The notes: generated from the sequence alone by a model not told the origin. A DNA stretch of 64,000 bases from Acidobacteriota bacterium (GCA_016935015.1 JAFGRT010000018.1:22693-86692), one strand, 5' to 3'; shown: positions 2,460 to 64,000, numbered from the stretch's first letter. Made by a program: numbers and translations.

Positions 2460-2530
2460 CCAGCCACCTCCAGAACATCTTCCGCTCTATCTGTTGCAGC
2501 GAACAGGATGTCGGATCCGCCTATTCCTTT

Positions 2531-2570
2531 TTTTCCTGAAATTATGTAAAAATGTGATTATAATTGGGTA
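2531..2570. promoter_or_regulatory. AT-rich core of divergent promoter region (TATAAT at 2559-2564; palindromic ATTATAAT usable on both strands)
   Basis: This is the only AT-rich stretch in the 350-bp divergent intergenic region between the minus-strand SDR operon and the plus-strand amine-oxidase/CFAS operon. It contains tgtgattataat. Confidence 0.35.
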
Positions 2571-2811
2571 TATCCCAGGCGCGAGGAAGGTGTGACGGCG
2601 TGTTAGGCGACCGACTGAACCCCGGTCCCTTCGGGACATCAGACAGCACTGCCACCTGACCGGATCCGTTTTGGAAGGCCGCCCTTCATCTCCGCCTCCT
2701 GTAATTTCCCCTGGGCTGGTGCGGGTCCTTTAATCACCGCCGGAGTGTATCTGTCAAGCAGCCGGTGGATATGAGCCAGATCGACCATTCCGAGAGGAAA
2801 AGGAGACGAAC

Positions 2812-16731: not shown

Positions 16732-16734
16732 GGA

Positions 16735-17961: not shown

Positions 17962-18010
17962 TTTTTCTCCTTGGGCCCGGACACTGCACACGATGCCCGG
18001 AGCATCAGGC

Positions 18011-19318: not shown

Positions 19319-19342
19319 GAAGCCGACCCGCCGGTTGTGGTG

Positions 19343-19377
19343 TCGCAGAGACAAAAAAGGCTACCAGAAGAGAGCCG
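19343..19377 (-). terminator. Rho-independent terminator downstream of rpsU (AAAAAA-GGCTACC-loop-GGTAGCC-TTTT; U6 on minus transcript)
   Basis: 7-bp perfect stem at 19349-19355 / 19367-19373, flanked by A6 and T4. It lies between the rpsU stop (19403) and the pdp start (19318). Confidence 0.6.
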
Positions 19378-19402
19378 GTAGCCTTTTGGAAAAATCGGAC
19401 TA

Positions 19403-20282: not shown

Positions 20283-22478
<2,196 letters not shown>

Positions 22479-30300: not shown

Positions 30301-31750
30301 CAATGCCAACGGGATCGAACGCATGATTGATGGTCAGGTCTTCGCTGACACGATCATTGGTGTTGATACCGAAACCCCGCACCTCCCCCCGCGGGAGGAG
30401 AAAATGGTTTTGCCAGGCCTGGAGCTGGAGAACGGGCTGCGTCCCACTGACCTCCTGTAGAAGGATGGTCTGGGAAAACTCCGACGTATTCCCCTCCGCC
30501 GTGGCCAACAGCGTGACCGCATGGCCGGGATCCATGATGAACGGAACGGTGAACTCACCGTCGTCCGCCGCCACCGTTTCTCCCAGAAACAGCATGCCCT
30601 CCCCGTATCCGGAAGGATCCGGATCCGCCTCATACACCTCGACCAACGCCTGAGGCATGGTCACGCCGTGCAAGGTAAAACGGTGCACATTGAAAAGACG
30701 CTCATGCGTGTAATCGTAGAGAATGGGCGCCGGCATGAGTTGATTGGGACCGGCACGAAATTCCATGTTGCTGTAACGGTTGGGACCATCACCGTAGCCC
30801 CCGATCAGGCTTAGATCCACGCCGAGAGCGCCGTTGCCGAAAATGGAATTATGGCTGATGACATTGCCGACGGCTTCTTTCCCCTCGACGAGCACCCCGC
30901 TGAAGCGGTTGCCGATGATGATATTCCTCTCGCTCAAGGTGCTACCGCCCACCATGGTATGCTTCCCGCGAATCCGGATACCCGTGCCGTTGGGCGTGGT
31001 CTGGGCCGGATTCAACAGTTCGGTGGAGCCCAGCACATTGCGCTGGAACCGGTTGAACTCGCAGGTAGGGGATGCGACAAAGATCCCGGTATCCTTGCAA
31101 TTGACAAAGGCATTCCCTCCCAGGGTCACGGCTTCGCCGATGGTGTTGTCGGAAGCCCCGTTGGCAAGATACACGCCGTGCCGCAGTTGGATTTTGTCCT
31201 CACCGAAACCCGACAGGACCGACAGGCCGAACAGGCAGCCGGCCACGGCGTTGTGGTGGGCGTCCGGACCATTCAGCAGCACGCCGATACTGTTCCGCCC
31301 GCCGAACACCAGGTGCTTGAGGGTGTTGCCTGACGATTGAATGGTCAGAATGGGCTCGCCGGGAGTGTCGGCCGAATACACGGGATGGATCAGGAAGATC
31401 CGGATGAGCAGCCGTTTCTCCAGATCCGTGAAGGTGTCGTTGGTCAAACCGACGATGAGCGTCTCGGGTATCTTGAGGGCCGGCAGCGGCCGGGATAGCA
31501 GCAGGACACCCGAATTGGCCAATTCCTCGGCAAAGATGATCTGGACGGGTTCACCCATTCCGTTGCGGGTCTGGATGGCCTCGCGCAGGCTCATGACGTT
31601 GTCGCCGGGATCGATATCCGAATCAGGCGGATCGAGCAAGGTGTTCACGGTAATGGTGGTTTGTCCCTGGACCAGGGCCGGACAAAGAACCAATATCCCC
31701 AACATACATAACCATTTAACAAAAGATGTTCGGAAAAAGAAGCTCATTGT
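27380..31750 (-). CDS. Giant secreted protein (1456 aa): signal peptide, CSLREA-type motif, right-handed parallel beta-helix repeats, FG-GAP (integrin-alpha-like) repeats, and four C-terminal ~110-aa beta-sandwich-like repeats
   Basis: Start MSFFFRTSFVKWLCMLGILVLCPALVQG with GAGGTG RBS. MSLREAIQ motif. Gly/Asn-rich beta-helix rungs (NVISHNSIFGNGALG...). Repeated Dx[DN]xDGxxD motifs (DLDNDGYDDLIV, DFDNDGRVDLLL, DFNGDQAPDIAV, DLNDDGLADILV, DLNADGFEDVAV). Confidence 0.8.
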   Translation of the reverse strand, partial: TMSFFFRTSFVKWLCMLGILVLCPALVQGQTTITVNTLLDPPDSDIDPGDNVMSLREAIQTRNGMGEPVQIIFAEELANSGVLLLSRPLPALKIPETLIVGLTNDTFTDLEKRLLIRIFLIHPVYSADTPGEPILTIQSSGNTLKHLVFGGRNSIGVLLNGPDAHHNAVAGCLFGLSVLSGFGEDKIQLRHGVYLANGASDNTIGEAVTLGGNAFVNCKDTGIFVASPTCEFNRFQRNVLGSTELLNPAQTTPNGTGIRIRGKHTMVGGSTLSERNIIIGNRFSGVLVEGKEAVGNVISHNSIFGNGALGVDLSLIGGYGDGPNRYSNMEFRAGPNQLMPAPILYDYTHERLFNVHRFTLHGVTMPQALVEVYEADPDPSGYGEGMLFLGETVAADDGEFTVPFIMDPGHAVTLLATAEGNTSEFSQTILLQEVSGTQPVLQLQAWQNHFLLPRGEVRGFGINTNDRVSEDLTINHAFDPVGIAQFIDTTIIRDGNHLVAHLQGLNRGGTLLTLKVPPEYGGAQADSRIYVDEATEITVNVPAELEDQLAGLIPYNYYRFAASAGEILNVTVESLPDAEGNLRLDPVVHVFSGFPRTLAFNNNYRGVDSYVQFIVPESGVYFLAVADLYLRSGQDYRFRLRAWIDRRQESFAPDRPPDQVDLAHVPDRVARGDLDNDGYDDLIVTLAGVPQIAVLLKDPRPGMNFRPPLMVNIGFAAHDITIQDFDNDGRVDLLLTDPVTGNVFILFNTGQFGKSAAGKSIMATGKSSLFSVPAGEGEGTSSDFNKDTFTDYAFLSNSEQTLQIYLNDGSGNLSLNQVLAAGSGPVTMATADFNGDQAPDIAVVDGTDSLVRVFRGMGDGDFEAASTLITAASPTDLKATDLNDDGLADILVCTDGEGLLHTFSALTSFEFELYQDLPAGTNPTSIAVADLNADGFEDVAVANGGSQDIYIYQGVQQGLLIPAAVLTETGEVEELLWLSFGNGGGYIGISPDTEFVSLLKGNYRILDFPNSETSTEVAAAFALANPAGGGEALVYFSLYDEDGSLVADPDVENPVALTIPEGEQIAFYVTDIFGSGINAYHPWMRAVSLSPRLQGFYLLTSVTAGPFMDGAVAQEVPAVITILPTNESLTTDGDCQVSIVNPNDATARVTVACIGTDGSGLADPFQTTLAPGGRLSFPFSDMFPGVTGACYLEVSADRPLDCFQYGGTDNLMTAAPGVVLTEPDKTASRLYAPHFAEGRFYRSVLELYNRSANPAEIVISAFRDDGTPFRTSAPAMIPPGGMRREELSQLLDIDWQSVDYEVGFLQVDSDQSGLGGTLTFGDRAQASFAATLVLQAGGLNRMMFSHLAYGELYGTDYFTGLTLLNAGANDAVAHFEVFDEFGNLTGAGDVPILAGTKSSRMLADFVPGLLPQIKGYITITTSDPAARLVAFELFGDMAGTFMSAVPPQSFSEEIAR

Positions 31751-31933
31751 TGCACCTCGGGGAAACCCATTCAATCCGTCCTGCTCATCACACAACACCG
31801 GTGAATGGCCGCCTTCATCCGGGTAGTTTTTCCGGCCGCAATCCTGAGACCGGTCCGTCACGCGCCGGCGGGAATTCGCCCTCGCCACACGGATGGCGTT
31901 CGGTTTGTTGAACCCGGTAACCAGTCAAAAGTT

Positions 31934-33568
31934 TCACTCGTCCGCCGGCTGGTCGGCTCCGCGCCATTCATCGAACTTTTTCAGCGCCTTGCCGGCAATC
32001 CAGCGGCGCGGCGGCTCAAAAGAGGGGGAAATTTGCGCGATGTCCCGGCGGGCCTTCTCCAGGAAATCGGAGTTTTTATCGCCTTCCAGATACTGCAGAT
32101 AAATCTGCGACATGGCGCGGAAAAACAGGGCCAGATCGCGGCGGGTGCCCTTTTCCAGGTAGGTGTCGAAATAAAAAGTGGCCTTGTGATAATCCCCTTC
32201 TCTGAAAAAGAGCCGCAGTCCTTCCTTGAGATACTCCTCCACAGCGAGCCGCCCACTTTCGGCCCTTCCCTGGCGCAGGCTCTGCTGCAACCCGGCGATG
32301 GTACCGGCCCCGGGATAATCCTGGGCCAGTGCGTTGAGCGCCGTCTCCGCGGTCTCGAAATCTTGGGCAGTGATCATTTGTTCAATTTCACCGGTTCGCT
32401 GGGCCAGGCGGTTCTCGGCCTGCCGGATATCATCCAGGTGTTGGACCGCGTCAGCGCCGAAGCGCGGATCTTCCCGCAGATGATACAGCAGCGGCTTGGC
32501 CTGCTGGTACCTCTTGGCATTCAGCAGGCTCTGGGCCTGGCGCCACTCCTGCGCGGCGGCAATCCGCTCACGGAGAGCCGACACGGCCGGGACCGTCGCG
32601 CCGCCATCCTCCAGCAGGCGGCACAAGCCGTCCGCCGCCTCCAGCTCACCACTTTCCAGACGCGTCTGGGCCTCTTCGAGCATACGTCCCAACAGCCGCT
32701 GACGCAAAACACCCACTTCGGGCTGCGTGCCCTGCCGCTCGGCGATACCCCGCAGTAAGGCCAGCGCTTGTCCGTATTTTTTCTGCGACAACAGATCCTG
32801 GATCTCCTGCAGCCGTTCCCTGAAGACCCGGCGTTCTGTCTTCTGCTCGATGCTGGCCGCACTTACCCGTTGCCGCATTTCCTGGGCCGCGCCGTGCAAT
32901 CGCTTGATTTTCTGCAACTCCGCCAGGGCCTCATCGTATTTCTCCGCTCCAAACAACCGCTGGGCTTCGGACAACGCCTGCTCATCATCGGCCAGCTCCT
33001 TCAGCCGGCGTTCGGCCTCCGCGGCGGTGGTTGAATCCTGCCGGGCCAGCGCGTCGGACTGAACCTGGCGCCAGAGATGGCGGGCACCGTTCAGATCGCC
33101 CGAGCGCAGACGCTCCTCGCCCTCGGCCAATTTGTGCTGCATTTCCGGGTCCAGCGGCGCCGGAACGGTCGGCCGGGCCTGGGCCTGGCGGTCACGCGCC
33201 GAACCCACGGCGGACTTGAGATCCGCCAGTTTGTGCCGGAAATCTTCATCCCCAAGGATCTCCTTCCAACTTTCCGACAGACCGATATACTCTTCGGCAG
33301 CCTCATACTTGCCCTGGTTGTAATAGGCCTCGGCCAGCCAGTAATAGGGGAAATAATCGATGCGGATGTTGCTGTGTATTTTCTTGTTGCGCTTGGGCTC
33401 AGGCTCTTTGCGGATGGCGATGCGCAGATTCTCCACCACATCGCCCCAGCGGCCTTCAGCCTTGGCCTTCATGGCGTCGTCCCAGTACTTGTACCATTCC
33501 TGTTCCGCCGCCGGCAGGACAGCCGAGACCAGACAGACCGACCACAGGATGAGCGCCGCCCGCTTCAT
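31934..33568 (-). CDS. Secreted tetratricopeptide-repeat (TPR/helical repeat) protein
   Basis: Signal peptide MKRAALILWSVCLVSAVLPAAEQ, followed by ~500 aa of A/E/R/L/Q-rich helical repeats. The start overlaps the kinase stop (ATGA). Confidence 0.7.
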   Translation of the reverse strand: MKRAALILWSVCLVSAVLPAAEQEWYKYWDDAMKAKAEGRWGDVVENLRIAIRKEPEPKRNKKIHSNIRIDYFPYYWLAEAYYNQGKYEAAEEYIGLSESWKEILGDEDFRHKLADLKSAVGSARDRQAQARPTVPAPLDPEMQHKLAEGEERLRSGDLNGARHLWRQVQSDALARQDSTTAAEAERRLKELADDEQALSEAQRLFGAEKYDEALAELQKIKRLHGAAQEMRQRVSAASIEQKTERRVFRERLQEIQDLLSQKKYGQALALLRGIAERQGTQPEVGVLRQRLLGRMLEEAQTRLESGELEAADGLCRLLEDGGATVPAVSALRERIAAAQEWRQAQSLLNAKRYQQAKPLLYHLREDPRFGADAVQHLDDIRQAENRLAQRTGEIEQMITAQDFETAETALNALAQDYPGAGTIAGLQQSLRQGRAESGRLAVEEYLKEGLRLFFREGDYHKATFYFDTYLEKGTRRDLALFFRAMSQIYLQYLEGDKNSDFLEKARRDIAQISPSFEPPRRWIAGKALKKFDEWRGADQPADE

Positions 33569-35619
33569 CGGCTGTCCTCCTGTGACAGAATGCTCTCAAT
33601 GACGGTCTCGACGTCAAATTCGGGCAGTGTTTTCCGGATGGCAACCGTCTGTCCGGCGTCAATGGCAAATTCCTCAACGATAGGGTTGTCCTGGAGATTC
33701 TGCCGCTGATAGCGGAGACGGTACCGGCCCGTCGGAAGTGCCAGCCGCAGCGGCGTCTCTTGCTCCGGCAACAGGATGGCTTCCCGGGTGCCTGTATCGA
33801 TCAAGTCCAGGATTTGCACGGCCGGCCGGATGTCCAGCAACAGGACGCCATTGGGCACTGGGACCGGCTCGGATCGGGTCTGTCGCACCACCACCACCAC
33901 AACGACGGCCAGCACCAGTGTTACGAAAATCAGTAACGGTACCAGCCACTTGCGTCGCCGGGCCGCCAGAATCTGGCGGGTGCTTTTTTTCAGCCGAGAA
34001 TCGACCCCCACCTGCTCCACCGCGGCGCCGGCCACCTGCAGGGCCGCGTCGTACTCCTTGCGCAGGTAGAGGGCCTCCATCTCCTGGAGGGCCCGCCCGA
34101 CAACCTCTTCCTTCTCCGCGGCGGCGATCTCGTCCAGCATCTCCGCCGCCGGGGGGTAGTCGGCCATCACGTCCATGGCCAGCCGGCAGTATCTCCGGGC
34201 CTCGTCCCGCTGCCCCTCGGCCAACATAACCCGCGCCTGGTCAGTCCATTGTTCGGCCTTGGCCTGGCGCTCCCGCCGGTCGATGAGCTCCTGGATATCG
34301 TTCAGCTTGACCGACAGATCCCGGGCCGCAGGATTGAGCTTCAAGGCCTCGCTGTACAGTTTTTTGGCCTCATCGAGCTTCTCCTGCTGCAGGGCGGTAT
34401 GCCCCAGCTGCATGTACTTTTCGATGGTCTGGTTGAGTCGTTTCTCTGCCTCTTTTTGGTGAGTTTTCCGGACCCACTCCAGCGCCATGGTATTTTCCGG
34501 CTCGACGGACAGCGCTTCGTTGAAGCACTCCAGGGCGAGATCATAATGATCATCATCAAAAAAGGTGATCCCCTCCGTCAGCAACTCCTCGATGCGCGCC
34601 TTGCGCTTCTTTTCGGCGATGTCCTCTTGCAACGCCTCGATGATTTCGGGCGATTCCCCCTGGGCGCGCAGCTTGTCCAGCACCCGCAACGCCTGGTCAA
34701 ATTTGCCTTCTTTGAGATAGCGGTTCACCAGATCGATCTTGATGCTCTGTTCTTCCGACCGGGTGCGCGGCACGGCGATGGTGGGTTCCATGGACATGTC
34801 CTGCTCGAACTCATCCTTGAGCTTGCGCAGGCGCCGGGCCAGGCTGGCCAGATCGGCGAACCGGTTTTCAGGTGATTTATCCAGGGCTTTCAGCACTATT
34901 TTTTCCAGCGATGACGGGCAGGCCGGGTAAACATCCCGCAGGGGACGGGGATTCTCGTGAAGAATCTTATACATGATGTTGGTATAGGTTTCGCCGTCGA
35001 ACGGACGCCGCCCGGTCAGCAGCTCGTACATGATCACGCCCAGGGAAAACTGGTCCGAGCTGCCGGCCAACGTCTCGCACTTGACCTGTTCCGGCGACAT
35101 GTAGCTGGGTGTGCCCAGCAGCATGCCCGTCTTGGTCATAAGGGAGGACTGGCTGATGTGAGCGATGCCGAAATCGACAATCTTGACCTTGCCGTTGGTG
35201 AGCAGAAAGATATTGGCTGGCTTGATGTCCCGGTGGATGATCCCGTGGCTGTGGGCGAAATGAAGACCTTCGCACACCTGGATGATCAGATCGATGATCT
35301 TTTGCAGGGTGAAGATATGCCTATGCTGTATCAGCCGGAACAGGTCGTCTCCCTCCAGAAACTCCATGGCGATGAAAGGAACACCCTGATCTTCGTTCAG
35401 TTCATAAATAACGACGATGTTCTCATGATGCAGCCGTCCCGGAGCCTGGGCTTCCTTGAAGAACCGTTTCTTGAACTCCGCATCGGACTGGCTGGAGTAG
35501 GACATGGTCTTGAGGGCCACATAGCGGCCCATGAGCGGGTCAAAGGCCTTGTAGACATGGCCCATGGCCCCTTTGCCGATCTCCTCGATGATTTCGTATT
35601 TGCCCAGCTTTTTCAGCAT
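33565..35619 (-). CDS. Hanks-type Ser/Thr protein kinase with cytoplasmic TPR region, single TM and ~105-aa extracytoplasmic C-terminal domain
   Basis: Kinase subdomains GKGAMGHVYKA, VALK, HRDIKPANIF, DFGIA, SPEQ. TM segment LVPLLIFVTLVLAVVVVVVV. Confidence 0.85.
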   Translation of the reverse strand: MLKKLGKYEIIEEIGKGAMGHVYKAFDPLMGRYVALKTMSYSSQSDAEFKKRFFKEAQAPGRLHHENIVVIYELNEDQGVPFIAMEFLEGDDLFRLIQHRHIFTLQKIIDLIIQVCEGLHFAHSHGIIHRDIKPANIFLLTNGKVKIVDFGIAHISQSSLMTKTGMLLGTPSYMSPEQVKCETLAGSSDQFSLGVIMYELLTGRRPFDGETYTNIMYKILHENPRPLRDVYPACPSSLEKIVLKALDKSPENRFADLASLARRLRKLKDEFEQDMSMEPTIAVPRTRSEEQSIKIDLVNRYLKEGKFDQALRVLDKLRAQGESPEIIEALQEDIAEKKRKARIEELLTEGITFFDDDHYDLALECFNEALSVEPENTMALEWVRKTHQKEAEKRLNQTIEKYMQLGHTALQQEKLDEAKKLYSEALKLNPAARDLSVKLNDIQELIDRRERQAKAEQWTDQARVMLAEGQRDEARRYCRLAMDVMADYPPAAEMLDEIAAAEKEEVVGRALQEMEALYLRKEYDAALQVAGAAVEQVGVDSRLKKSTRQILAARRRKWLVPLLIFVTLVLAVVVVVVVRQTRSEPVPVPNGVLLLDIRPAVQILDLIDTGTREAILLPEQETPLRLALPTGRYRLRYQRQNLQDNPIVEEFAIDAGQTVAIRKTLPEFDVETVIESILSQEDSR

Positions 35620-42463: not shown

Positions 42464-43873
42464 TCAGAGGATATACTTGCTCAAATCTTCGTCTTCAACG
42501 ATGTCTTTCAGCTGTTTTTCTACATAGTCGCTGGAAATGGTGATTTGCTTGTCGGCCAGCTCCTCTCCTTCAAACAGGATCTGATCCAGGACGCTCTCCA
42601 TGATGGTGTACAACCGGCGGGCGCCGATGTTCAGGGCGGAATCGTTCACCCGGGCAGCAAAATGGGCGATGGAACGGATGGCCGAATCATGGAAATGCAG
42701 GGTTACGCCCTCGGTCTCCATCAGAGCGGTGTACTGCTTGATCAGGGCGTTCTCCGGCTCGGTGAGAATGCGGACGAAGTCCTCCTCGGAGAGGCTGTCC
42801 ATCTCCACGCGCAGTGGAAAGCGCCCCTGCAGCTCGGGGATGAGATCCGACGGCGAGCTGACATGGAAGGCTCCGGCGGCGATGAACAGGATGTGATCGG
42901 TCCGGACCATGCCGTGCTTGGTGTTGACGGTGGTGCCTTCCACGATGGGGAGGATGTCGCGCTGAACACCTTCGCGGCTGACGTCCGGCCCGTGGGTCGT
43001 GCCCTCACTTTTGGCGATCTTGTCGATCTCGTCCAAAAAGATGATGCCCGAATGCTCCACCCGCTTGATGGCGTCGCGCGACAGGCGGTCGGTATCGATC
43101 AGACGCTGCTCCTCCTCCCGGATGAGGTGCTCCATCCCCTCATCCACCCGCATCTGGCGACGCTTTTTCTGACTGCCGAACAGGCCACCCAGCATGTCCT
43201 TCATGTTGACGCCCAGTTCCTCTACCCCGGCCGAGCTGAAAATTTCGAAACTGGGGAAACGGTTCTGCTGGACCTCGATCTCCACCGCCCGGTGATCCAG
43301 CTCGCCGGTACGCAGCTTTTCCCGCATTTTTTCTCGGGTTTTCTGGAAATTCTCGTAGGCCGACCACTCGCCCGGCGCCTGGGACTCGGGCTGGACGGGC
43401 TTGGGGTAGGGCGGCAGCAGCAGGTCCAGCATGCGGTTCTCGGCGTTGATGACGGCTTTCTCGCGCACTTCCTGGAACATTTCCTCCCGGACCATGTCCA
43501 CGCCGATTTCCACCAGGTCGCGGATCATGGACTCCACGTCGCGGCCCACGTACCCTACCTCAGTGAATTTACTGGCTTCCACCTTCAGAAAAGGGCTGCG
43601 CGACAGACGCGCCAAGCGGCGGGCGATCTCCGTTTTGCCCACACCGGTGGGACCGATGAGGATGATGTTCTTGGGCGCCACTTCTTCGGCCATGGCTTCG
43701 CTCAGTTTCTGGCGGCGGACCCGGTTACGCAGCGCGATGGCTACCGCCCGTTTGGCCTTGTGCTGGCCGACGACGTACTTGTCCAGTTCGGCCACGATCT
43801 GACGTGGATTCAACTCGTCCAGGTTGATGGGCTTCTCCTGCAGGGCAGGCTGGTACTGGCGGTAAATATTCAT
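42464..43873 (-). CDS. hslU: ATP-dependent protease ATPase subunit HslU
   Basis: Walker A GPTGVGKT, followed by the I-domain and the C-terminal HslV-docking end. Start MNIYRQ overlaps the hslV stop. Confidence 0.9.
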
Positions 43874-43874
43874 G

Positions 43875-44417
43875 TCAGGACGCTCCGGCGGCAAGGATTT
43901 CCACAACGAGACTCTCGTTGGTGTAGATGCAGATTTCGGCGGCGATCTTCATGGCCTCGCGGGCGATCTCCTCGGCCGACAGGGTGGTGTGACGCAGCAG
44001 GGCCGTGGCCGCCGCCTTGGCGAAATCGCCGCCCGAGCCGATGCCGATGAGCCCGTCCTCCGGCTCGATGATGTCGCCGGTCCCCGACAAGAGGAAAGCG
44101 CGCTTTTCGTCGGCCACCAGCATCAGGGCCTCCAGGTGCCGCAGCGAGCGGTCGGTGCGCCATTCCTGGGCCAGCTCCACGGCGGCCCGTTCCAGATTGC
44201 CCGAGAACTCCTTGAGTTTCTTCTCGAAACGGGCGAAAAGAGCGAAGGCGTCGGCCGTGGAGCCGGCGAAACCGGCGATGACCTTGCCGTCGAAGAGCCG
44301 CCGCACTTTGCGGGCGGTATGTTTGACCACGGTTTTACCCATGGTCACCTGGCCGTCGCCGGCCAGGACGGACACGCCGTCCTTGCGCACAAAGAGAATG
44401 GTGGTGCCTGTCATCAT
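43875..44417 (-). CDS. hslV: ATP-dependent protease subunit HslV
   Basis: N-terminal catalytic Thr ([14 protein letters not shown]...), GSGGDFA. Confidence 0.9.
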
Positions 44418-44460
44418 GGGTGATATGCCTCGATGGGGACGACCGGAGGACGCACCGGCG

Positions 44461-45018
44461 TCAGATTTTCATCAGTTCCGTCTCTTTTTTCTTGGTGAGT
44501 TCGTCGATTTTCTTCACGTACTCGTCGGTCAGGGACTGCACCCGGTCCTGCCCTTTGTGGGACTGGTCCTCGGAGATTTCCTTGTCCTTTTCCAGCTTCT
44601 GGATCTGGTCGCGGGCGGTCTGGCGGTTCTGGCGAACGGCGATCCGGTGCTGCTCGGACATCTGGTGGACGTTCTTGACCAGCTGCTTGCGCCGCTCCTC
44701 GGTCAACGGCGGCACCGGGAGTCGGATGACCTTGCCGTCGTTGGAGGGGGTGATGCCGAGATCCGACTGCTGGATGGCCTTTTCGATGGCGCCGATGCTG
44801 GAGACATCCCACGGCTGGATCACGATGAGGGTCGGGTCGGGCGTGGAAATGGTGGCCAGCTGGTTGAGGGGCGTCATGGTGCCGTAGTAGTCCACACGGA
44901 CCGGATCCACCAGGTGGACCGAGGCCCGGCCGGTGCGTACCGATTTGAGCTCCTGCTCGAAGTCGAGGAGCGTCATCTCCATTTTCTCTTCCGTTTGTTT
45001 TAATACTTCCTCTAGCAT
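44461..45018 (-). CDS. frr: Ribosome recycling factor
   Basis: 185 aa, canonical RRF ([19 protein letters not shown]..., [13 protein letters not shown]). Confidence 0.9.
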
Positions 45019-48233: not shown

Positions 48234-48559
48234 GGCGCACCGCCCGGTCAGGCCGGCTCATTTCTGAGCCCAAATCTGAACAGTCACCTCCACGTCTGGC
48301 GGGGAAGATCCGTGTGACATGGCATAGACCGGCTTGCCGGCCGGATTCGGGCATGAACCATCCCCGGCCGGGGTAAATCTAAACAGGAAAGCGCCCTCCA
48401 CCAGGATGCGATGGCTGGTCTCCGGATTAGCCATTTTTCTTTCTTTACGGGAGCATGTGTACGGCCACTGATGCAGCAGATATAAAAAATTTTAAATATA
48501 GTACAACTTTCATGGCCGGCTGGCGTAAGATGAGGGGAATTTTCAGAGAGGTGAAACAG

Positions 48560-49882
48560 ATGCCCAACCAAGCAGAATCGGATCGTCGCCGTTTTATCCG
48601 CAACGCCGGCCTGGGCCTGGTGGGTGCCGGTGTCCTGAGTCATGGCGCCTGGTCCTCCGCCCAGGAAGCGGCGGAAGCCGAGGCTCCCGACGGAGCCAGG
48701 ATCAAGGAGTTCCGCACCCTGGGCCGGACCGGGTTCAAGGTCTCCGACATCAGCACCGGCGGTCCCCTTGAAGCCGGCCTTCTCCGGGCCTTGCTGGATG
48801 TGGGCGTCAACTACATCGACACCGCCGAAAGCTACGGTCGCGGCGCCTCGGAAAAAGTGGTGGGCGAGGTGCTCAAGGACCGCGATCGCAAATCTCTCTT
48901 CATCTCCTCCAAGCTGGTGGTGAAGGAAACGGACACCCGGGATACCATCCTGGATCGCTCCCGCCAGTGTCTCGAGCGCCTGGGGACCGAATACCTCGAC
49001 TGCATGATGATCCACAGTGCCCCCACCATCGCCATCGTCAAGCATGAGGGCTTCCATGAAGCCATGCGCCAGCTGAAGACCGACGGCAAGGTTCGTTACC
49101 TGGGCATCTCCAATCACGGTTCCCAGTGGGAGGAGCAGGCCGAGACCATGGAGCAGGTGATCTGTGGCGCCGCGGCGGACGGCCGGTTCGACGTTATGCT
49201 GCTGGTCTACAACTTCATCCAGCAGGAGCAGGGCCGAAACGCCCTGGCCGCCTGTCGCGAACACAACATCGGCACCACCCTGATGAAGACCAACCCGGTG
49301 GGCGGGTATATGGGTCTCAAGCAGATGATCGAGCAACGTGAAAAGGAAGGGCAGGAGATCCCCGACCAATACCGTCATATCCTGTCCAAACTGAAAGCGG
49401 TAGCCGATCAGGCCGATGATTTCATCCAGAAGAACGATCTGAATAATCCCGCCGAGATCCGGGATGCCGCCATCCGCTTTGTCCTGAGCAATCGGGACGT
49501 GCATACGGTCTGCGTTTCGTTCCGGAATTTTGATGACGTCGACACGTACGTCAAGCTCTCCGGTACGGCATTGTCGGCACCCGAAGCGAAAAAGCTCAGC
49601 GCCTACCGTCAGGGATGCGGCGCCATCTACTGCCGCCATGCCTGCGGCATCTGCGAAGCCAACTGTCCGCGGGGTGTGCCTGTGAATACCATCATGCGCT
49701 ACAACCATTATTTTGAAGCCCAGGGCCGGGAAAAATACGCCATGGCCAAATATGCCGCCTTGCCCACCGCCAAGGGAAACGTCTGCCAGGATTGTGCCGG
49801 GCATTGTGAATCCGCCTGCCCGTATGGCGTGCCGGTCCAGGGATTGCTGGCGCTGGCCCATCATCGTTTGACACTTGTCTGA
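48560..49882 (+). CDS. Aldo/keto reductase with twin-arginine (Tat) signal peptide and C-terminal 4Fe-4S ferredoxin-like Cys cluster
   Basis: Start MPNQAESDRRRFIRNAGLGLVGAGV (RRxFI Tat motif; GAGAGGTG RBS). AKR core (GVNYIDTAESYG...). C-terminal CRHACGICEANCP...CQDCAGHCESACP. Confidence 0.75.
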   Translation: MPNQAESDRRRFIRNAGLGLVGAGVLSHGAWSSAQEAAEAEAPDGARIKEFRTLGRTGFKVSDISTGGPLEAGLLRALLDVGVNYIDTAESYGRGASEKVVGEVLKDRDRKSLFISSKLVVKETDTRDTILDRSRQCLERLGTEYLDCMMIHSAPTIAIVKHEGFHEAMRQLKTDGKVRYLGISNHGSQWEEQAETMEQVICGAAADGRFDVMLLVYNFIQQEQGRNALAACREHNIGTTLMKTNPVGGYMGLKQMIEQREKEGQEIPDQYRHILSKLKAVADQADDFIQKNDLNNPAEIRDAAIRFVLSNRDVHTVCVSFRNFDDVDTYVKLSGTALSAPEAKKLSAYRQGCGAIYCRHACGICEANCPRGVPVNTIMRYNHYFEAQGREKYAMAKYAALPTAKGNVCQDCAGHCESACPYGVPVQGLLALAHHRLTLV

Positions 49883-50010
49883 CAGTGCCGAAACGTCATC
49901 CTCACCGCCCATCGGCTGAACCGGACGGCGGCCGTCGACGCGTCCGCCACCGGTTCATATGCTCACAAATTCGGCAAACCTGCGCGCCCTTTCCATCATC
50001 TATACCAGTG

Positions 50011-53511: not shown

Positions 53512-54909
53512 ATGGCCGATTATCAAATCATCACGGAAACGGATATCGCCGCGCTTCGCCGTCTCGTCGGGGACGGATATGTCAGCCGCGGCGAATCCCA
53601 CCGGGAACTCCACGCCCATGACGAGTCCTTCCATGAAACGCACCGCCCCGACGTGGTGGTCTGGCCCCATTCCACCGCCGACGTGCAGGCCGTCGTCCGC
53701 CTGGCGGCGGAACGGCGCTGGCCGGTGACCCCGTGGGGCGCGGGCAGCAGCCTGGAGGGGAATCCCATCCCCGTATCCGGCGGCATTGTCCTGGATATGC
53801 AGGAGATGAACCGGATCCTGGACATCCGTGAAACGGACTTCCAGGTGGATGTCCAGGCCGGTGTCATTTACAAGGAACTGAACCAGCGTCTCCAGCGGCA
53901 GGGCCTGTTTTTCCCGCCCGACCCGGGGGCGTCCGCCACCGTGGGCGGCATGATCGCCAACAACGCCAGCGGAATCCGCACCGTCAAATACGGCCCCACC
54001 AAGGACTACGTGCAGCGCCTCACCGTGGTGCTGGCCGACGGGCGGGTGATCCCCATCGGCAATCGGGCGCGGAAGAGTTCCTCCGGTTACGACCTTTGCC
54101 GGCTGTTCACCGGATCGGAGGGCACACTGGGCATCGTGACCGAAGCCACTCTCCGGCTGGTGGGCCTGCCCGAGAAGGTAATGGCGGTGCGGGCCGCCTT
54201 TCCGGCGGTGGAGAACGCCTCACAGACCGTCTTCGAGGTCATGTCCTCGGGCCTGACGCCGTCGGCCATGGAGTTTCTGGACGGTGCCGTGATGGGCGTT
54301 CTCAATCGCGACCGCGGACTCGATCTGGAGGAAAAGCCCACCCTGCTCATGGAATTCCACGGTTTCAGCGAGCAGGGGCTGCAGGCCGAACTGGAGCTGG
54401 TGGAAGACATCTGCCGCGCCAACGGCTGCGTGGTGCTGGACCGGGGCATCGGCCCCGATGAGCGCCACCGCCTGTGGGAGATGCGCCACCTGACGGTGGA
54501 ATCCATCAAGCGGGTTCACCCCGCTCTGCACTTGCTCATCATGGACGTGGCCGTGCCCCTGTCGCGTTACAGCGACATGGTCACCTTCATCGAGGAAGAA
54601 ACCCGCGGCTTCACGGCCTACGTCTTCGGGCACGCCGGCGACGGCAACATCCACGTGGTGGTTATGGACGATCACCACGCGCCCGACCGCTGGTGCCGGG
54701 TGCAGGACCTGAACCGGCGTATCGTCCTGCAGGCGCTGGAGTACGAGGGCACCTGCACCGGCGAGCACGGCATCGGCATCGGCAAGCGGGAATTCATGAG
54801 ACGGGAGCATGGCCCCGGCCTGGACCTGATGCGCGACCTGAAGTCCCTGCTGGATCCGCAGGGCATCCTCAATCCCGGCAAAATCTTTCCCCCGGCCGCC
54901 GAAGAATGA
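53512..54909 (+). CDS. FAD-linked oxidase (GlcD / D-lactate dehydrogenase family)
   Basis: FAD-binding PCMH domain (VVWPHSTADVQAVVRLAAERRWPVTPWGAGSSLEGN) plus C-terminal oxidase domain. Confidence 0.85.
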   Translation: MADYQIITETDIAALRRLVGDGYVSRGESHRELHAHDESFHETHRPDVVVWPHSTADVQAVVRLAAERRWPVTPWGAGSSLEGNPIPVSGGIVLDMQEMNRILDIRETDFQVDVQAGVIYKELNQRLQRQGLFFPPDPGASATVGGMIANNASGIRTVKYGPTKDYVQRLTVVLADGRVIPIGNRARKSSSGYDLCRLFTGSEGTLGIVTEATLRLVGLPEKVMAVRAAFPAVENASQTVFEVMSSGLTPSAMEFLDGAVMGVLNRDRGLDLEEKPTLLMEFHGFSEQGLQAELELVEDICRANGCVVLDRGIGPDERHRLWEMRHLTVESIKRVHPALHLLIMDVAVPLSRYSDMVTFIEEETRGFTAYVFGHAGDGNIHVVVMDDHHAPDRWCRVQDLNRRIVLQALEYEGTCTGEHGIGIGKREFMRREHGPGLDLMRDLKSLLDPQGILNPGKIFPPAAEE

Positions 54910-59980: not shown

Positions 59981-60942
59981 ATATGATGCGAATCATCCCC
60001 TTTCGCCATTTGCAATACGCTCAGTTGGAACCGCTGCTGCTCCAGGAAAAAGAGGAATGGGAACACCTGTTGGAGTGGGATTTCCATAATGTCATCCTGG
60101 CCTTCCGTTCCATGCTCCCCTCCCGGCTGCTGCCCGGCCTGGCACTGTTGGAAGATGACTGCTGTGTCGGTTATCTGTATGTGGTGCAGCGTGAAATGCG
60201 CTGTATCATCGGCGGCCTCTATTTTCAGCGGGAATTGCGTGATTCTCGCTGGCCGAAACTGTTGCTGGAGCGTCAGCTGGCGGAACTTTCCCTGACTGCG
60301 TCATCTCTGTCCGTCGAAGGCCAGATTACGTTTCCCGGTCCGGAACAATCTTTGCGCGGCGTTTTGGAAGAAGAGGGCTTCCACGTGATGCAACGGAGTT
60401 TCCGGCGGTTGACGAACCTGTCGGCGGAAGTCCCCGCCGCTCCCGACCATGATTTTTTGCTGCGCCCGTTACACTATGCCGACATCGATGCCATGGCGTT
60501 GCTCATGACCACCTGTTACCGGGATCATATCGACGGCCGGGTGTCGGCCCTGTACGCTACGTTCCGCGGCTGCAGCTTCCTGCTCAACCAGCTGATTCTG
60601 AAAGACGGCTGCGGTGCTTTTCAGCCCTGGTGCTCGTTCACCGCCCATTTACGCAATGAATTGATCGGTGTCATTGTCGTGTCCCGCATTTCCGAACGAT
60701 CGTTCTTCGTTTCCCAGATTTTCATCCATCCGCGGCAGCAAAAGAAAGGTTACGGCCGCTATCTTCTCTATGCCTGCATCGACCGTATCGCCCGCCGCGC
60801 GCCCGGCGCCCACCTGGCGCTGACGGTGACCCGGGATAATACGAAGGCGATGGATTGGTATGAGAGAATTGGTTTTACAGAAGTAACACCCAATTTCTCG
60901 TTCATGCGGCCGCCGCCGGAGACGGAATTGTCACCGGACTAA
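59977..60942 (+). CDS. GNAT-family N-acetyltransferase (tandem/duplicated acyl-CoA N-acyltransferase fold)
   Basis: C-terminal GNAT core (QIFIHPRQQKKGYGRYLL...TRDNTKAMDWYERIGF). Confidence 0.6.
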   Translation: MNMMRIIPFRHLQYAQLEPLLLQEKEEWEHLLEWDFHNVILAFRSMLPSRLLPGLALLEDDCCVGYLYVVQREMRCIIGGLYFQRELRDSRWPKLLLERQLAELSLTASSLSVEGQITFPGPEQSLRGVLEEEGFHVMQRSFRRLTNLSAEVPAAPDHDFLLRPLHYADIDAMALLMTTCYRDHIDGRVSALYATFRGCSFLLNQLILKDGCGAFQPWCSFTAHLRNELIGVIVVSRISERSFFVSQIFIHPRQQKKGYGRYLLYACIDRIARRAPGAHLALTVTRDNTKAMDWYERIGFTEVTPNFSFMRPPPETELSPD

Positions 60943-61704
60943 AATCCGGATCATCTGATCGTGGATCCGGCCGTTGGACGCCAGAATCTCCCCATCGAAA
61001 ATAGAATAGGGACCCCCATCGAAACGGCTGACTCTCCCCCCGGCTTCAGTCACGACCACACGGGCGGCGGCCGTATCCCAGGGGTGCAACCGTCGTTCCC
61101 AAAAGCCGTCGAATCGTCCGGCGGCCACGTAGCATAGATTCAGCGCCGCCGATCCGTCTCGCCGCACTGCCTGGGCGGCAGGAAGGACGCGCTCCAGATC
61201 CCCCAGCACGTCCTCATAATGCCGATGGACATCATAGGGAAAGCCCGTGCAGAGCATTCCGTCCTCGAGTTTGGCGACCTCGCTGACACGGATCCGCCTT
61301 CCGTTCAGCCACGCGCCTTCTCCTTCCGCCGCCCAGAACATCTCCTGCAGGACCGGCGCATACACCACCCCGGCCACTTCCCGTCCCTGCCGGCGTAATC
61401 CGATGGACACACAAAACATCGGGTAGCCATGGGCGAAATTCGTGGTCCCGTCGATGGGATCCACCACCCACACGAACTCCTCCGCCAGATTCTCCGCCTC
61501 TCCTTCCTCCCGCAGCAAGCCATGACCGGGAAACTCCTCTCGGAGCTCCGATACGATCTGCTCCTCCACCGCCACATCCGCCTCGGTGACCAGATCGATT
61601 TTCCCCTTTTTCCGGACCTCCACCCCCTGACGGAAATAATGCAACGCCAGGTCGCCCGCTTGCGCGGCGATTTTTACGGCTGTTTCAATGTAGGCAGGGC
61701 TCAT
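60931..61704 (-). CDS. suhB: Inositol monophosphatase-family protein (SuhB-like)
   Basis: Start MSPAYIE with GAAGGAAG RBS. IMPase motifs WVVDPIDGTTNF and WDTAA. Confidence 0.85.
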   Translation of the reverse strand: MSPAYIETAVKIAAQAGDLALHYFRQGVEVRKKGKIDLVTEADVAVEEQIVSELREEFPGHGLLREEGEAENLAEEFVWVVDPIDGTTNFAHGYPMFCVSIGLRRQGREVAGVVYAPVLQEMFWAAEGEGAWLNGRRIRVSEVAKLEDGMLCTGFPYDVHRHYEDVLGDLERVLPAAQAVRRDGSAALNLCYVAAGRFDGFWERRLHPWDTAAARVVVTEAGGRVSRFDGGPYSIFDGEILASNGRIHDQMIRILVR

Positions 61705-61922
61705 GATACTTCCTTCGAAAAGTCTCGTTCTAAAAAGAAATTTTGTCATGAAAATCATCCCAACACAACGCCGCATTGACGCCCGACAGGATGACCGACC
61801 AGGATTGTCCGTCCAAATTGCTGCCGGTCATGAGATTCAACACCGCAATTATGCATTCGGATTATCGCCGATTTATGCTATGCTTGTAACTTTAGTGGAA
61901 TACTTCACAAAAGGAGTGTCTC

Positions 61923-62243
61923 ATGGGAAATATCGATGTGAACGGACAAAACGTCGCCACCAACGAGGAAGGTTTCCTCCTCGATCCGGATGTCTGGTCA
62001 CAGGCTGTGGCGGCGGCGCTGGCCAAAAAGGAGGAAGGCATTAAATCCCTGTCGGAGGATCATTGGGCGGTGATTGATTGCATCCGCGAATACTACACAG
62101 AGAAGCAGCAGGCACCCATGGTTCGTAAAATATGCCAGCAGACCGGTTTCCCACTGAAGTATATTTACCAGCTTTTCCCCTCGGGCCCGGCCAAGGGAGC
62201 CTGCAAGGTCGCCGGTCTGCCCAAGCCGGACGGCTGTGTCTGA
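61923..62243 (+). CDS. dsrC: DsrC-like protein (TusE/DsrC/DsvC family) with both conserved C-terminal cysteines
   Basis: C-terminus ...GACKVAGLPKPDGCV has the penultimate Cys plus a Cys 10 residues upstream, as in bona fide DsrC. AAGGAG RBS. Confidence 0.75.
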   Translation: MGNIDVNGQNVATNEEGFLLDPDVWSQAVAAALAKKEEGIKSLSEDHWAVIDCIREYYTEKQQAPMVRKICQQTGFPLKYIYQLFPSGPAKGACKVAGLPKPDGCV

Positions 62244-62258
62244 TTCCGGAGATCCGGT

Positions 62259-62894
62259 ATGATGACATTGCTGCCGTTTGCCGTTCTGGTTAGCCTGCTG
62301 ATCTGTGTGGCGACTCTGACCGCCATGGTTCTGCGATCCCGTGCGTTCGGAAAAAGGGCGCTGCATGCTGCACCGGTGGCCACCGCAACCCGGGGCATTG
62401 TGTTCGCCTTCGGCACCGGTATGCTGCCCTGGGAAAAAGAGAGCGCCCGCCGGCACTTGTTCACCTATCTCGCTGGAATCATTTACCATGTGGGAGTGTT
62501 CACCGCTGCGGGCTATGTATCGTGGCGCCTGGTGTTCGGTGCGCCGGCCGGTGGTTCAGCGCTGCTGACGGTGTTTCTTCTGCCGGGTGTGGCGGCCGGA
62601 GTCTTTCTGCTGCTGAAGCGGCTGTTCGTCCGGAACATGCGCCGTCTCAGCGTACCCGACGACTACATCTCCAATCTCCTGGTGAACTATCTCCTGGCCG
62701 CCTCAGCCGTGGATGCCGTTACCGGCACCTTCACCCCCGGTCTCTATCTGGCCGTGATCCTCCTGCTGATTTATATTCCACTGGGCAAAATCCGCCACTG
62801 CGTGTTCTTCTTCTATGCCCGTTACCTGCTGGGCCGCTTTCATGGCCGTCGTGGAACCTGGCCCAAACCCGACCTCAACGAGGACGCCTCATGA
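62259..62894 (+). CDS. Small polytopic membrane protein, putative NarI/HdrE/DsrM-like b-type cytochrome
   Basis: 211 aa, ~5 TM. His pairs sit within hydrophobic helices (RRHLFTYLAGIIYH; RHCVFFFYARYLLGRFH). It is translationally coupled to the downstream CCG Fe-S protein. Confidence 0.45.
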   Translation: MMTLLPFAVLVSLLICVATLTAMVLRSRAFGKRALHAAPVATATRGIVFAFGTGMLPWEKESARRHLFTYLAGIIYHVGVFTAAGYVSWRLVFGAPAGGSALLTVFLLPGVAAGVFLLLKRLFVRNMRRLSVPDDYISNLLVNYLLAASAVDAVTGTFTPGLYLAVILLLIYIPLGKIRHCVFFFYARYLLGRFHGRRGTWPKPDLNEDAS

Positions 62895-64000
62895 CACCAT
62901 CATTTCCCGCCCTTACCATCATGGAGGCCAAGATCCGCCAACTGACGGAAAAGGATCTGGAGCGGGCCCTGCAGGTCTTTCGCCGGAGCCTGGATCACGA
63001 GGCGTCCGCCTACCTCAATTCGTGTGTGCACTGCGGTCTGTGTGACGTATCGTGCCACTATTTCCTGACCTATCATGATCTTGAATCCATGCCCGCCTAC
63101 AAGCTGAAGCTGGTCACCGACGTCTTCAAGGGGCACTTCAGCCGATTGGGACGCACGCTACCCGGCCTGATCGGAGCCAAGAAACTGGATCACGCCATGA
63201 TCCGGGCCTGGCTGGACTCCCTTTTCGGCCGCTGCTCCCTGTGCGGCCGCTGTTCCATCAATTGCTCCATCGGCATCAACATCACGCAACTGATCCGGGC
63301 CGCCCGCGGCGCCCTGGCCGCCATCGGCCTGGTACCGCCCGGCCTGCAGTCCACCGTGGACACGGCCATCCAAAAAGGGAACAACATGGGAATCCCCCGG
63401 GAGGACTGGCTGGAAACCGTGGAATGGCTGGAAGAGGAGCTGCAGGCCGAAGTCGACGATCCCTCCGCCCGGCTGCCGCTCGATGAGCCCGACGTGAATC
63501 TGTTTTACACCATCAACCCCCGGGAGGCCATGTTTTTTCCGCTGTCCATTCTGGCCGCCGCCAAGATTTTTTACGCCGCCGGCGAAAGCTGGACCTTCTC
63601 CCGCGAAAATTACGACGTGACCAACTACGGGCTGTACAGTGGTGACGACGCCGTGGCCGGCACCTTGTCCAACCGACTGGTTGAATCCATGCTCGCCCTG
63701 AAGGCCGGGACCCTGGTTCTGGCCGAATGCGGGCACGGCTTCAACTCCAACCGCTGGGAAGCACCGGAATGGCTGTCGAAACATTACCCATTTCCGGTGA
63801 AAAGCGTGCTGGAAATCGTCGCCGACTACATTCGAGACGGCCGCATCCGCCTCGATCCGTCGCGGAATTCCAAAACCGTGACGCTGCATGATCCGTGCAA
63901 TCTGGTCCGCCTGGGAGGGATCATCGAGGAACAGCGGTTTATCCTGCGGCATGCCGTGGCCGATTTCGTCGAGATGACACCCAACCGCGAAAAGAACTAC
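62891..64000 (+). CDS. CCG-domain iron-sulfur protein (HdrD/DsrK/GlpC-like), 3'-truncated by window end
   Basis: Two Cx2Cx2Cx3C motifs (CVHCGLCDVSC, CSLCGRCSINC) followed by a Cys-rich CCG region (LAECGHGFNS...LHDPCNL). It is missing from the ORF track because it has no stop in the window. Confidence 0.7.
   Translation, partial: MTPSFPALTIMEAKIRQLTEKDLERALQVFRRSLDHEASAYLNSCVHCGLCDVSCHYFLTYHDLESMPAYKLKLVTDVFKGHFSRLGRTLPGLIGAKKLDHAMIRAWLDSLFGRCSLCGRCSINCSIGINITQLIRAARGALAAIGLVPPGLQSTVDTAIQKGNNMGIPREDWLETVEWLEEELQAEVDDPSARLPLDEPDVNLFYTINPREAMFFPLSILAAAKIFYAAGESWTFSRENYDVTNYGLYSGDDAVAGTLSNRLVESMLALKAGTLVLAECGHGFNSNRWEAPEWLSKHYPFPVKSVLEIVADYIRDGRIRLDPSRNSKTVTLHDPCNLVRLGGIIEEQRFILRHAVADFVEMTPNREKNY

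Follow-up and report, generated by a model that had tools for sequence, protein, structure and literature searches.

What is a gene for the sulfur carrier DsrC doing in a stretch of genome that otherwise gives no sign of sulfur metabolism? DsrC is regarded as a marker for sulfur metabolism that depends on DsrAB. The question is raised by the final 2.1 kb of the window analysed here (64,000 nucleotides (nt) of an Acidobacteriota bacterium, GCA_016935015.1 JAFGRT010000018.1:22693-86692), which read as three + strand open reading frames (ORFs): (i) dsrC; (ii) a gene for a small membrane protein; and (iii) the first part of a gene for an iron-sulfur (Fe-S) protein, here called K. In the remaining 62 kb of the window, dsrAB, dsrD, dsrN, dsrT, dsrJOP, apr, sat and qmo were not found, nor was any recognisable sulfur-metabolism gene.

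The best overall explanation, to which we give a probability of about 0.6, is that the operon encodes a self-contained membrane-bound quinol:DsrC(-bound sulfur) oxidoreductase, that is, a minimal two-subunit relative of DsrMK, HmcEF and TmcCB together with its carrier. Its parts differ in strength: the assignment of the core module, which draws on motifs, profile scores and gene order, is very probable, and the proposal that a linked cysteine desulfurase provides the sulfur carried by DsrC is tentative.

The dsrC operon and its relatives

The operon comprises the following features (aa, amino acids; TM, transmembrane):

61843-61922, + strand: 5' region of the operon, nearly identical to the sequence upstream of dsrC in the related locus L081
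61923-62243, + strand: dsrC, 106 aa, matching Pfam DsrC and TIGR03342
62259-62894, + strand: membrane protein gene, 211 aa, five TM helices, NarI/EtfD fold, distant HmcE/TmcC relative
62891-64000, + strand: first 1110 nt of the K gene (DsrK/HmcF/TmcB family), 370 of about 445 codons, running off the window end

A good Shine-Dalgarno sequence (AGGAG, 61912-61916) precedes dsrC, whose stop codon (62241-62243) is separated by a 15-nt spacer from the ATG of the membrane gene at 62259. The overlapping stop and start that the first-pass annotation had placed at this junction are instead found only at the following one, where the membrane and K genes share ATGA (62891-62894). Its statement that the third gene is cut by the window end agrees with the reading frame, which runs from 62891 to 64000 over 370 codons. 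The upstream neighbour, an inositol-monophosphatase-family gene (60931-61776, - strand), is divergent from dsrC and, in consequence, the three genes constitute a unit with its own 5' region. Within that region, the roughly 80 nt at 61843-61922 are almost the same as L081 9600-9664 (L081 being a 76-92%-identical relative), and the sequences farther upstream have diverged; this stretch probably holds a promoter or an operator. A scan for consensus sigma-70 elements found no credible + strand promoter upstream of dsrC. The same stretch contains repeated TTATGC elements (AATTATGCAT ... GATTTATGCTATGCT). To judge from orientation, spacing and conserved order, the three genes form one operon.

When the K fragment was scanned against species-representative genomes, 80 loci were found, at 59-72% identity. 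The order dsrC-membrane gene-K is kept among them: 61 loci have dsrC upstream of the membrane gene, and the membrane gene precedes K in nearly all loci with a readable upstream flank. This recurrence, in about 60 of 80 independent loci, makes the operon more than a chance arrangement. The carriers are mostly Aminicenantes, together with Zixibacteria, other Acidobacteriota, one Eisenbacteria metagenome-assembled genome (MAG), one Chrysiogenales MAG and some doubtfully labelled bins. Outside a four-gene block consisting of dsrC, the membrane gene, K and a downstream cysteine desulfurase gene (csd, described below), the genes differ between Aminicenantes and Zixibacteria; hence, it is the block that is conserved and not the neighbourhood.

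The three gene products

The 106-aa protein matches Pfam DsrC (PF04358; 4.8e-37, 127 bits, cut-off 24.9) and TIGR03342 (2e-31, 108.6 bits, cut-off 53.5). It ends in CKVAGLPKPDGCV, within a C-terminal arm reading ...FPSGPAKGACKVAGLPKPDGCV, and both cysteines of the swinging arm that had been noticed earlier are in place: the penultimate CysA is C105 (62235-62237), and CysB is C94 (62202-62204), 11 residues upstream with ten residues between them. Both are kept in 52 of 60 homologs from the related loci and in 118 of the 120 best database homologs. The TusE equivalog model NF008562 gives the window protein only 77.7 bits (cut-off 191; 78-82 bits is the range that includes the ortholog). In a comparison with PDB sequences, the solved DsrCs of Pyrobaculum and Desulfovibrio vulgaris score highest (1ji8, 108 bits; 2v4j_C, 104 bits), against 31 bits for the TusE-like sulfurtransferase 7syb, and the arm is nearly identical to that of D. 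vulgaris DsrC. A TusE assignment is thus ruled out by equivalog score, cysteine count and PDB similarity, and the earlier preference for DsrC holds: by all these measures the window protein is of the two-cysteine DsrC type.

In two respects the DsrCs of this module depart from those of sulfite reducers. Firstly, the arm reads PKPDGCV, with Asp102 (62226-62228), where the solved sulfite-reducer DsrCs have Thr (PKPTGCV). The Asp occurs in 60 of 60 DsrCs from the related loci and in all 120 best database matches, and it is possibly a diagnostic residue for module-type DsrCs. Secondly, CysB is replaced by Ala (AKIAGLPKPDGCV) in eight of the 60 (13%; loci L002, L003, L006, L007, L009, L016, L018 and L054), the rest of the operon being intact. 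It follows that a DsrC trisulfide is not obligatory for the module.

The K fragment carries two CxxCxxCxxxC motifs, C45/48/51/55 (63023-63055) and C115/118/121/125 (63233-63265), then C280 in an AECGH motif (63728-63730) and C336 (63896-63898), the first Cys of a CCG motif. It ends at Tyr370 (...PNREKNY), and CCGGGGG begins one residue beyond the window; for this reason Pfam CCG has no match in the fragment. The ortholog in L081 (445 aa, 92% identical) continues as ...NYCCGGGGG...PCHNC and does match Pfam CCG. Accordingly, of the two [4Fe-4S] motifs plus CCG domain reported by the first-pass annotation, both motifs are in the window and the CCG lies outside it, where it is seen in the ortholog. 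Fourteen Cys are invariant in 67-68 members of the family: eight are the ligands of the two cubane clusters, and the other six are C280, C336, C371, C372, C411 and C414. A single complete CCG motif, CX34CCGX38CxxC (C336...C371C372...C411xxC414), is found in L081 and in 65 of 68 family members; the Cys at its last position (CHNC), a site beyond the window in the window copy, is likewise present in 65 of the 68. The first CCG-like half of the K family keeps only C280, in the form AECGH (49 of 68), GECGH (17) or SECGH (2).

Unlike HdrD/HdrB, the proteins DsrK, HmcF and TmcB are marked by a single CCG motif together with the Cys and His of T/GECGH (Barbosa et al., PMC10861901). The presence of this signature throughout the K family bears out the earlier idea of a DsrC-dependent redox module. 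In the DsrMKJOP structure obtained by cryo-electron microscopy, the ECGH Cys carries a persulfide; it is the proposed relay that hands sulfur on from CysA of DsrC to the one non-cubane cluster, and the His two residues after it is the proposed proton donor (bioRxiv 10.64898/2026.08.25.746951). The conserved Asp500 of Archaeoglobus fulgidus DsrK has a proposed role in adapting the cluster to oxygenated sulfur (bioRxiv 10.64898/2026.08.25.746951); the K family has Cys at this position, as do some DsrK paralogs (PMC10861901).

Profile scores lead to the same family. The fragment matches the NCBIfam models HmcF (1e-59), TmcB (1e-58) and DsrK (4.5e-54, 183.8 bits), and the full-length L081 ortholog scores 287 bits with HmcF (cut-off 750), 283 with TmcB (735) and 235.2 with DsrK NF045796 (400). 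On these motifs and scores, K is the cytoplasmic catalytic subunit of an enzyme of the DsrK/HmcF/TmcB family. Membership of HdrDE is ruled out by the presence of one CCG motif and not two; HdrB and HdrC reach only about 18 bits with the L081 ortholog.

Alternatively, K might belong to the generic Fe-S oxidoreductases of the GlpC/GlcF/LutA type, anchored to the membrane, with DsrC an unrelated neighbour, a possibility that the first-pass annotation had itself raised. Weak matches to GlpC (38.9 bits, cut-off 278), GlcF (33.7, cut-off 333), LdhH and TfrB, and a glycolate-oxidase-like flavin adenine dinucleotide (FAD) protein encoded 7 kb upstream (53512-54909), point that way. Nevertheless, these matches amount to 20-60 bits (18-63 for GlpC, GlcF, LdhH and HdrB/C) compared with 235-287 for DsrK, TmcB and HmcF, the K family has the ECGH plus single-CCG signature, dsrC lies directly upstream in about 60 loci, and the GlpAB, GlcDE or LutBC partners are not adjacent. 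An unrelated neighbourhood of this kind is barely credible, and a GlpC/GlcF/Lut-type assignment of K is ruled out by the low scores and by the lack of adjacent partner dehydrogenase genes.

As for the membrane protein, its AlphaFold2 model (predicted local distance difference test score, pLDDT, 87.7) has five TM helices and, in a fold search, resembles NarI and the membrane domain of mycobacterial EtfD. No Pfam family matches the protein, even at E 0.1, and a PDB sequence search returned nothing meaningful. NCBIfam HmcE (26-31 bits, cut-off 275) and TmcC (24-27 bits, cut-off 240) match over almost the full length, and DsrM NF038037 gives a short match of 12.9-18.4 bits (cut-off 300). With scores so far below the equivalog cut-offs, the protein is only a distant HmcE/TmcC relative. 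Its family is a small one: a search of 1.84 billion proteins yields 494 representatives at E<=1e-3.

The earlier description of a five-TM, His-rich, NarI-like protein is right as to helices and fold and overstated as to His, since there are five in 211 aa. Mapping them yields three conserved residues: H77 (62487-62489, TM2) and H180 (62796-62798, TM5), which are invariant in the family together with C181, and H66 (62454-62456), which is 97% conserved. The fourth His of a NarI-like set (position 203) is not conserved: 65% of the family have it, and the window protein has Lys instead; with this residue absent in a third of the family, a NarI-type di-heme assignment is unproven. In EtfD, a single heme b is bound by His78 (TM2) and His241 (TM5) (PMC13083937). 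By analogy, H77 and H180 are the proposed heme b ligand pair here, which would mean one heme; a second is doubtful. Because the fourth NarI-type His is missing, we only infer the heme content and the quinol site, and the protein is presumed to be a quinol-oxidising cytochrome b. The charge distribution would put the N-terminus outside and the conserved loops GMLPWEKES, KR and DD in the cytoplasm, on the side where K would dock.

A natural fusion, P0377 (670 aa), joins the membrane domain (8-207) to a DsrK/TmcB/HmcF-like Fe-S/CCG domain (240-670), which supports the view that the membrane protein and K form one complex. In P0377, Met stands at the position of Cys181 and PCGH at that of the ECGH motif; the layout is that of mycobacterial EtfD.

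Profile scores place the two subunits, taken as a pair, closer to HmcE-HmcF and TmcC-TmcB than they are to DsrM-DsrK; they form a separate subfamily because every equivalog cut-off is missed by far. Of the DsrMK/HdrDE architecture announced by the first-pass annotation, the combination of a carrier, a NarI-like protein and a DsrK-like protein remains, with the affinity moved towards HmcEF/TmcCB and HdrDE excluded. The DsrK and DsrM models that it pointed to reveal that K is related to DsrK, with both subunits below the respective cut-offs.

The likeness to EtfD invites the opposite direction of electron flow, in which the complex would oxidise reduced DsrC, or sulfane sulfur bound to DsrC, and feed the quinone pool. 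EtfD works in this direction with ETF, and the same has been proposed for the DsrMKJOP of sulfur oxidisers. Electron flow from thiol to menaquinone is thermodynamically downhill. Moreover, the closest solved structure for the membrane domain and part of K is that of EtfD, a menaquinone-reducing protein. Other features disagree: dsrEFH, dsrL, sox, sqr and sHdr were not found near the related loci, the closest matches of the DsrC are archaeal and reductive-type DsrCs, and K appears to have a catalytic open site (the ECGH Cys plus one non-cubane cluster), while the clusters of EtfD are closed and fully ligated. Operation in reverse is, hence, very improbable.

The linked desulfurase gene and the proposed reaction

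In the related loci, the next gene downstream of K encodes a class-V aminotransferase of 387-390 aa, csd, which is always convergent to the operon. The gap between K and csd has a median of 22 nt, and tail-to-tail overlap is frequent. The L081 protein scores 451 bits with TIGR01977, 'cysteine desulfurase family' (cut-off 377), and all of 46 sequences compared have both the pyridoxal phosphate (PLP) lysine (H202-K203) and C341 in RTGLHCA. Going by the synteny with L081 and L082, csd should lie downstream of the window copy too.

The association of csd with dsrC was counted in the 56 loci in which both flanks are readable: 41 have both genes, six have dsrC without csd, nine have neither, and none has csd without dsrC (Fisher p = 6.6e-7, n=56 loci, a value that ignores shared ancestry). 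Five of the six csd-less dsrC loci fall among the group whose DsrC has no CysB. In five loci (L085, L011, L019, L033 and L036; cluster c28), cysK stands between K and csd. The copy in L085 (12565-13620) encodes a cysteine synthase A (TIGR01139, 365 bits, above the cut-off) with a Cys-rich C-terminal tail and has the orientation of the operon.

The reaction that we propose would proceed as follows: (i) menaquinol is oxidised at the five-TM cytochrome b; (ii) electrons pass from heme b through the two cubane clusters to the non-cubane cluster; (iii) sulfur arrives on CysA of the DsrC arm and undergoes reduction at the non-cubane cluster; and (iv) C280 relays the sulfur, H2S is released and DsrC is regenerated. 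The direction of electron flow, the quinol donor and the role of C280 are assigned by homology to A. fulgidus DsrMKJOP and should be read as predictions. For two-subunit DsrMK, quinol oxidation at the NarI-like subunit has been predicted and, therefore, the earlier general idea stands. As gene linkage would have it, the adjacent convergent csd, and not DsrAB, would load DsrC as a persulfide; overall, this would amount to cysteine + quinol -> alanine + H2S + quinone.

Several features favour a plain cysteine-derived persulfide over an oxygenated DsrAB product: DsrC is encoded in the operon, both subunits are HmcE/HmcF-like in sequence, Cys takes the place of Asp500, CysB is dispensable, there is no dsrAB context, csd is tightly linked and cysK occurs occasionally. 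Together, they suggest that the sulfur on DsrC is a cysteine-loaded persulfide rather than a product of DsrAB. A broader proposal, possible though doubtful, is that Aminicenantes, Zixibacteria and related uncultured anaerobes run a DsrAB-independent DsrC cycle in which cysteine sulfur serves as a respiratory electron sink, an HmcEF-like complex carrying out cysteine + MQH2 -> alanine + H2S + MQ (MQ, menaquinone; MQH2, menaquinol).

The link to csd could also be read as a biosynthetic sulfur relay. DsrC would then be a TusE/SufE/CsdE-like persulfide acceptor of the neighbouring csd product, and the membrane complex would supply electrons for sulfide release or for recycling of the carrier, in the synthesis of cysteine, Fe-S clusters or cofactors or in tRNA thiolation. 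The tight linkage to what looks like an active cysteine desulfurase, the occasional cysK in the block and the resemblance of the CysB-less DsrCs to single-Cys carriers are in line with this, and many homologs bear the Joint Genome Institute (JGI) name 'tRNA 2-thiouridine synthesizing protein E'. That name, however, is an automatic annotation, and the TusE equivalog scores of 78-82 bits are to be compared with a cut-off of 191. Likewise, tusBCD, tusA, mnmA, sufE and sufBCD are absent from every related locus. A respiratory-type cytochrome b with a DsrK-type subunit would also be an unusual biosynthetic reductant; known biosynthetic sulfur systems use ferredoxin. A relay of this kind is improbable.

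Canonical dissimilatory sulfite or sulfate reduction would have dsrAB elsewhere in the genome and, as the substrate, the DsrC trisulfide made by DsrAB. Consistent with it, the DsrC has both Cys in an arm close to those of sulfate-reducer DsrCs, DsrMK-only systems are known in sulfite reducers (PMC10504309), and full Dsr pathways occur in some Acidobacteriota and Zixibacteria. Besides, the window organism is not clearly a member of the Aminicenantia. The best non-self relatives of its PNPase (20283-22478), at most 74% identical, are labelled Acidobacteria, Vicinamibacteria and Terriglobia, none of them Aminicenantes, which makes the organism a deep-branching Acidobacteriota of unclear class. 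Unlike those of PNPase, the nearest named relatives of the operon are Aminicenantes (K 72%); either the history of the operon may differ from that of the core genome, or the lineage may be an unsampled Acidobacteriota class.

Evidence from the loci and from the lineage runs the other way. Within 10 kb in the 85 related loci, dsrAB, dsrJOP, dsrD/N/T, apr, sat, qmo, tusA and dsrEFH were not found, in keeping with the 62 kb of the window. The scores of K (235 bits) and of the membrane protein (13-18 bits) fall far short of the DsrK and DsrM cut-offs, the K family has Cys for Asp500, PKPDGCV replaces PKPTGCV family-wide, and CysB is missing from 13% of the module DsrCs. Most carriers are Aminicenantes, which metagenome papers describe as fermenters and which are absent from a census of 950 dsrAB-carrying genomes that lists 19 Acidobacteriota, 0 Aminicenantia and, from a single family, two or three Zixibacteria (PMC10591310). 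Dissimilatory sulfite or sulfate reduction is unlikely for the module family as a whole; for the window organism, it is the less probable reading.

A number of points weigh against a cysteine-fed quinol:DsrC oxidoreductase. To begin with, csd is convergent and, hence, not co-transcribed with the operon; it may owe its place there to inherited synteny or to a part in supplying Fe-S clusters. We know of no precedent for direct sulfur transfer from a desulfurase to DsrC; the known routes go through TusA and DsrEFH/TusBCD. Persulfide reduction driven by menaquinol is thermodynamically tight (S0/HS- about -270 mV, menaquinone about -74 mV), and Lys203 takes the place of the fourth NarI-type His in the window protein. 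The class of the host is unclear, and some Acidobacteriota carry dsrAB. Finally, dsrD and a two-Cys dsrC have been reported from an Aminicenantes MAG, which also speaks for the canonical pathway; the MAG is about 50% complete and has no dsrAB (PMC6081815).

Known systems and the rest of the window

In order of closeness, the systems that resemble the module are: (i) DsrMK with DsrC; (ii) HmcEF/TmcCB; (iii) EtfD; and (iv) HdrDE. DsrMK(JOP) with DsrC, the menaquinol:DsrC-trisulfide oxidoreductase known from sulfate and sulfite reducers, among them A. fulgidus, has in common with the module a NarI-fold cytochrome b, a DsrC substrate with a CysA/CysB arm and, as predicted for K, a cytoplasmic subunit with two [4Fe-4S] clusters, one non-cubane cluster and the Cys and His of ECGH. 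But while DsrM has about 320-340 aa and four conserved His, the window protein has 211 aa and three. The module further differs in its operon-encoded dsrC, the lack of a dsrAB context, Asp for Thr in the arm, Cys for Asp500 and scores well under the DsrK and DsrM cut-offs (K 235 against 400; membrane protein 13-18 against 300).

HmcE-HmcF and TmcC-TmcB, from the Hmc and Tmc complexes of Desulfovibrio, are the best-scoring families for both subunits, yet far below the cut-offs, and they have similar sizes (about 211-226 aa and about 430-457 aa) and one CCG plus T/GECGH. Unlike Hmc and Tmc, the module lacks periplasmic partners, whether cytochrome c or Fe-S proteins (HmcABCD, TmcA/D): genes for cytochrome c, HmcB/C/D and TmcA/D were not found adjacent to the related operons and, in consequence, the donor must be the quinone pool. 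Conversely, hmc and tmc operons contain no dsrC, and DsrC is there a hypothesised substrate.

EtfD (PDB 9ojn, PMC13083937) has five TM helices and heme b on His of TM2 and TM5, as proposed here; its Fe-S/CCG part is matched by K at E 8e-9, and its one-chain layout is that of P0377. It differs in being one polypeptide with two CCG domains, whose clusters (a linear 3Fe-4S and a non-cubane cluster capped by His) are closed and non-catalytic; ETF is its electron donor and menaquinone its acceptor, and it has neither DsrC nor ECGH cysteine chemistry. The HdrDE of methanogens likewise combines a membrane cytochrome b with a CCG catalytic subunit and reduces a disulfide from a membrane quinone-like carrier. 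Nevertheless, with two non-cubane clusters and a complete CCG motif for each, HdrD differs from K, which has one CCG, and the substrate, CoM-S-S-CoB, is a small molecule and not protein-bound sulfur. On the side of the carrier, TusE (YccK of Escherichia coli) belongs to the same Pfam/TIGR03342 superfamily, is a penultimate-Cys carrier and has a cysteine desulfurase as its ultimate sulfur source in E. coli; it has one Cys and works with TusA, TusBCD and MnmA, none of which is encoded near the module.

A word-based search of the open-access literature found no account of an operon of dsrC with HmcE-/HmcF-like genes and a linked csd. To our knowledge, DsrMKJOP is the only DsrK-type enzyme shown to reduce DsrC. 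The compact dsrC/HmcE-like/HmcF-like operon spans dozens of uncultured species, most of them from lineages not known for DsrAB; so far, it is comparative genomics that makes it a candidate DsrAB-independent DsrC cycle. Should this be correct, (i) metagenome surveys could not safely take dsrC, alone or with a DsrK-like gene, as a sign of sulfite or sulfate reduction; (ii) the operon would be the first operon-level link of DsrC to the HmcF/TmcB branch, with DsrC as the substrate of an HmcF/TmcB-type enzyme; and (iii) there would be a testable route from cysteine sulfur to sulfide at the membrane of abundant sediment fermenters. Having two enzyme subunits and one carrier, the system is attractive for heterologous reconstitution.

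Elsewhere in the window, the following genes were distinguished:

591-1202, - strand: DUF2878
1160-2170, - strand: short-chain dehydrogenase
2812-4083, + strand: flavin amine oxidase
4080-6080, + strand: fused DUF1365 and cyclopropane-fatty-acyl-phospholipid-synthase protein
27380-31888, - strand: FG-GAP-repeat protein, 1502 aa
31934-33568, - strand: 544-aa protein with no Pfam match
33565-35619, - strand: 685-aa ORF, putative Ser/Thr kinase by the look of its sequence

The cluster at 591-6080 looks like a lipid-modification gene set, judging by its domains. The three genes at 27380-35619 are tightly packed on the same (-) strand. Scans for tRNA genes and Rfam families found nothing that reaches threshold in the whole 64 kb. 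The long ORFs at 16129-19381, 42545-45003 and 48284-49912 have no Pfam match and an atypical GC content by codon position (at least 0.72 at the first position, GC1, and 0.6-0.68 at the third, GC3, against about 0.62 and about 0.74 in confident genes). Shadow ORFs, read on the wrong strand or in the wrong frame, are the probable explanation.

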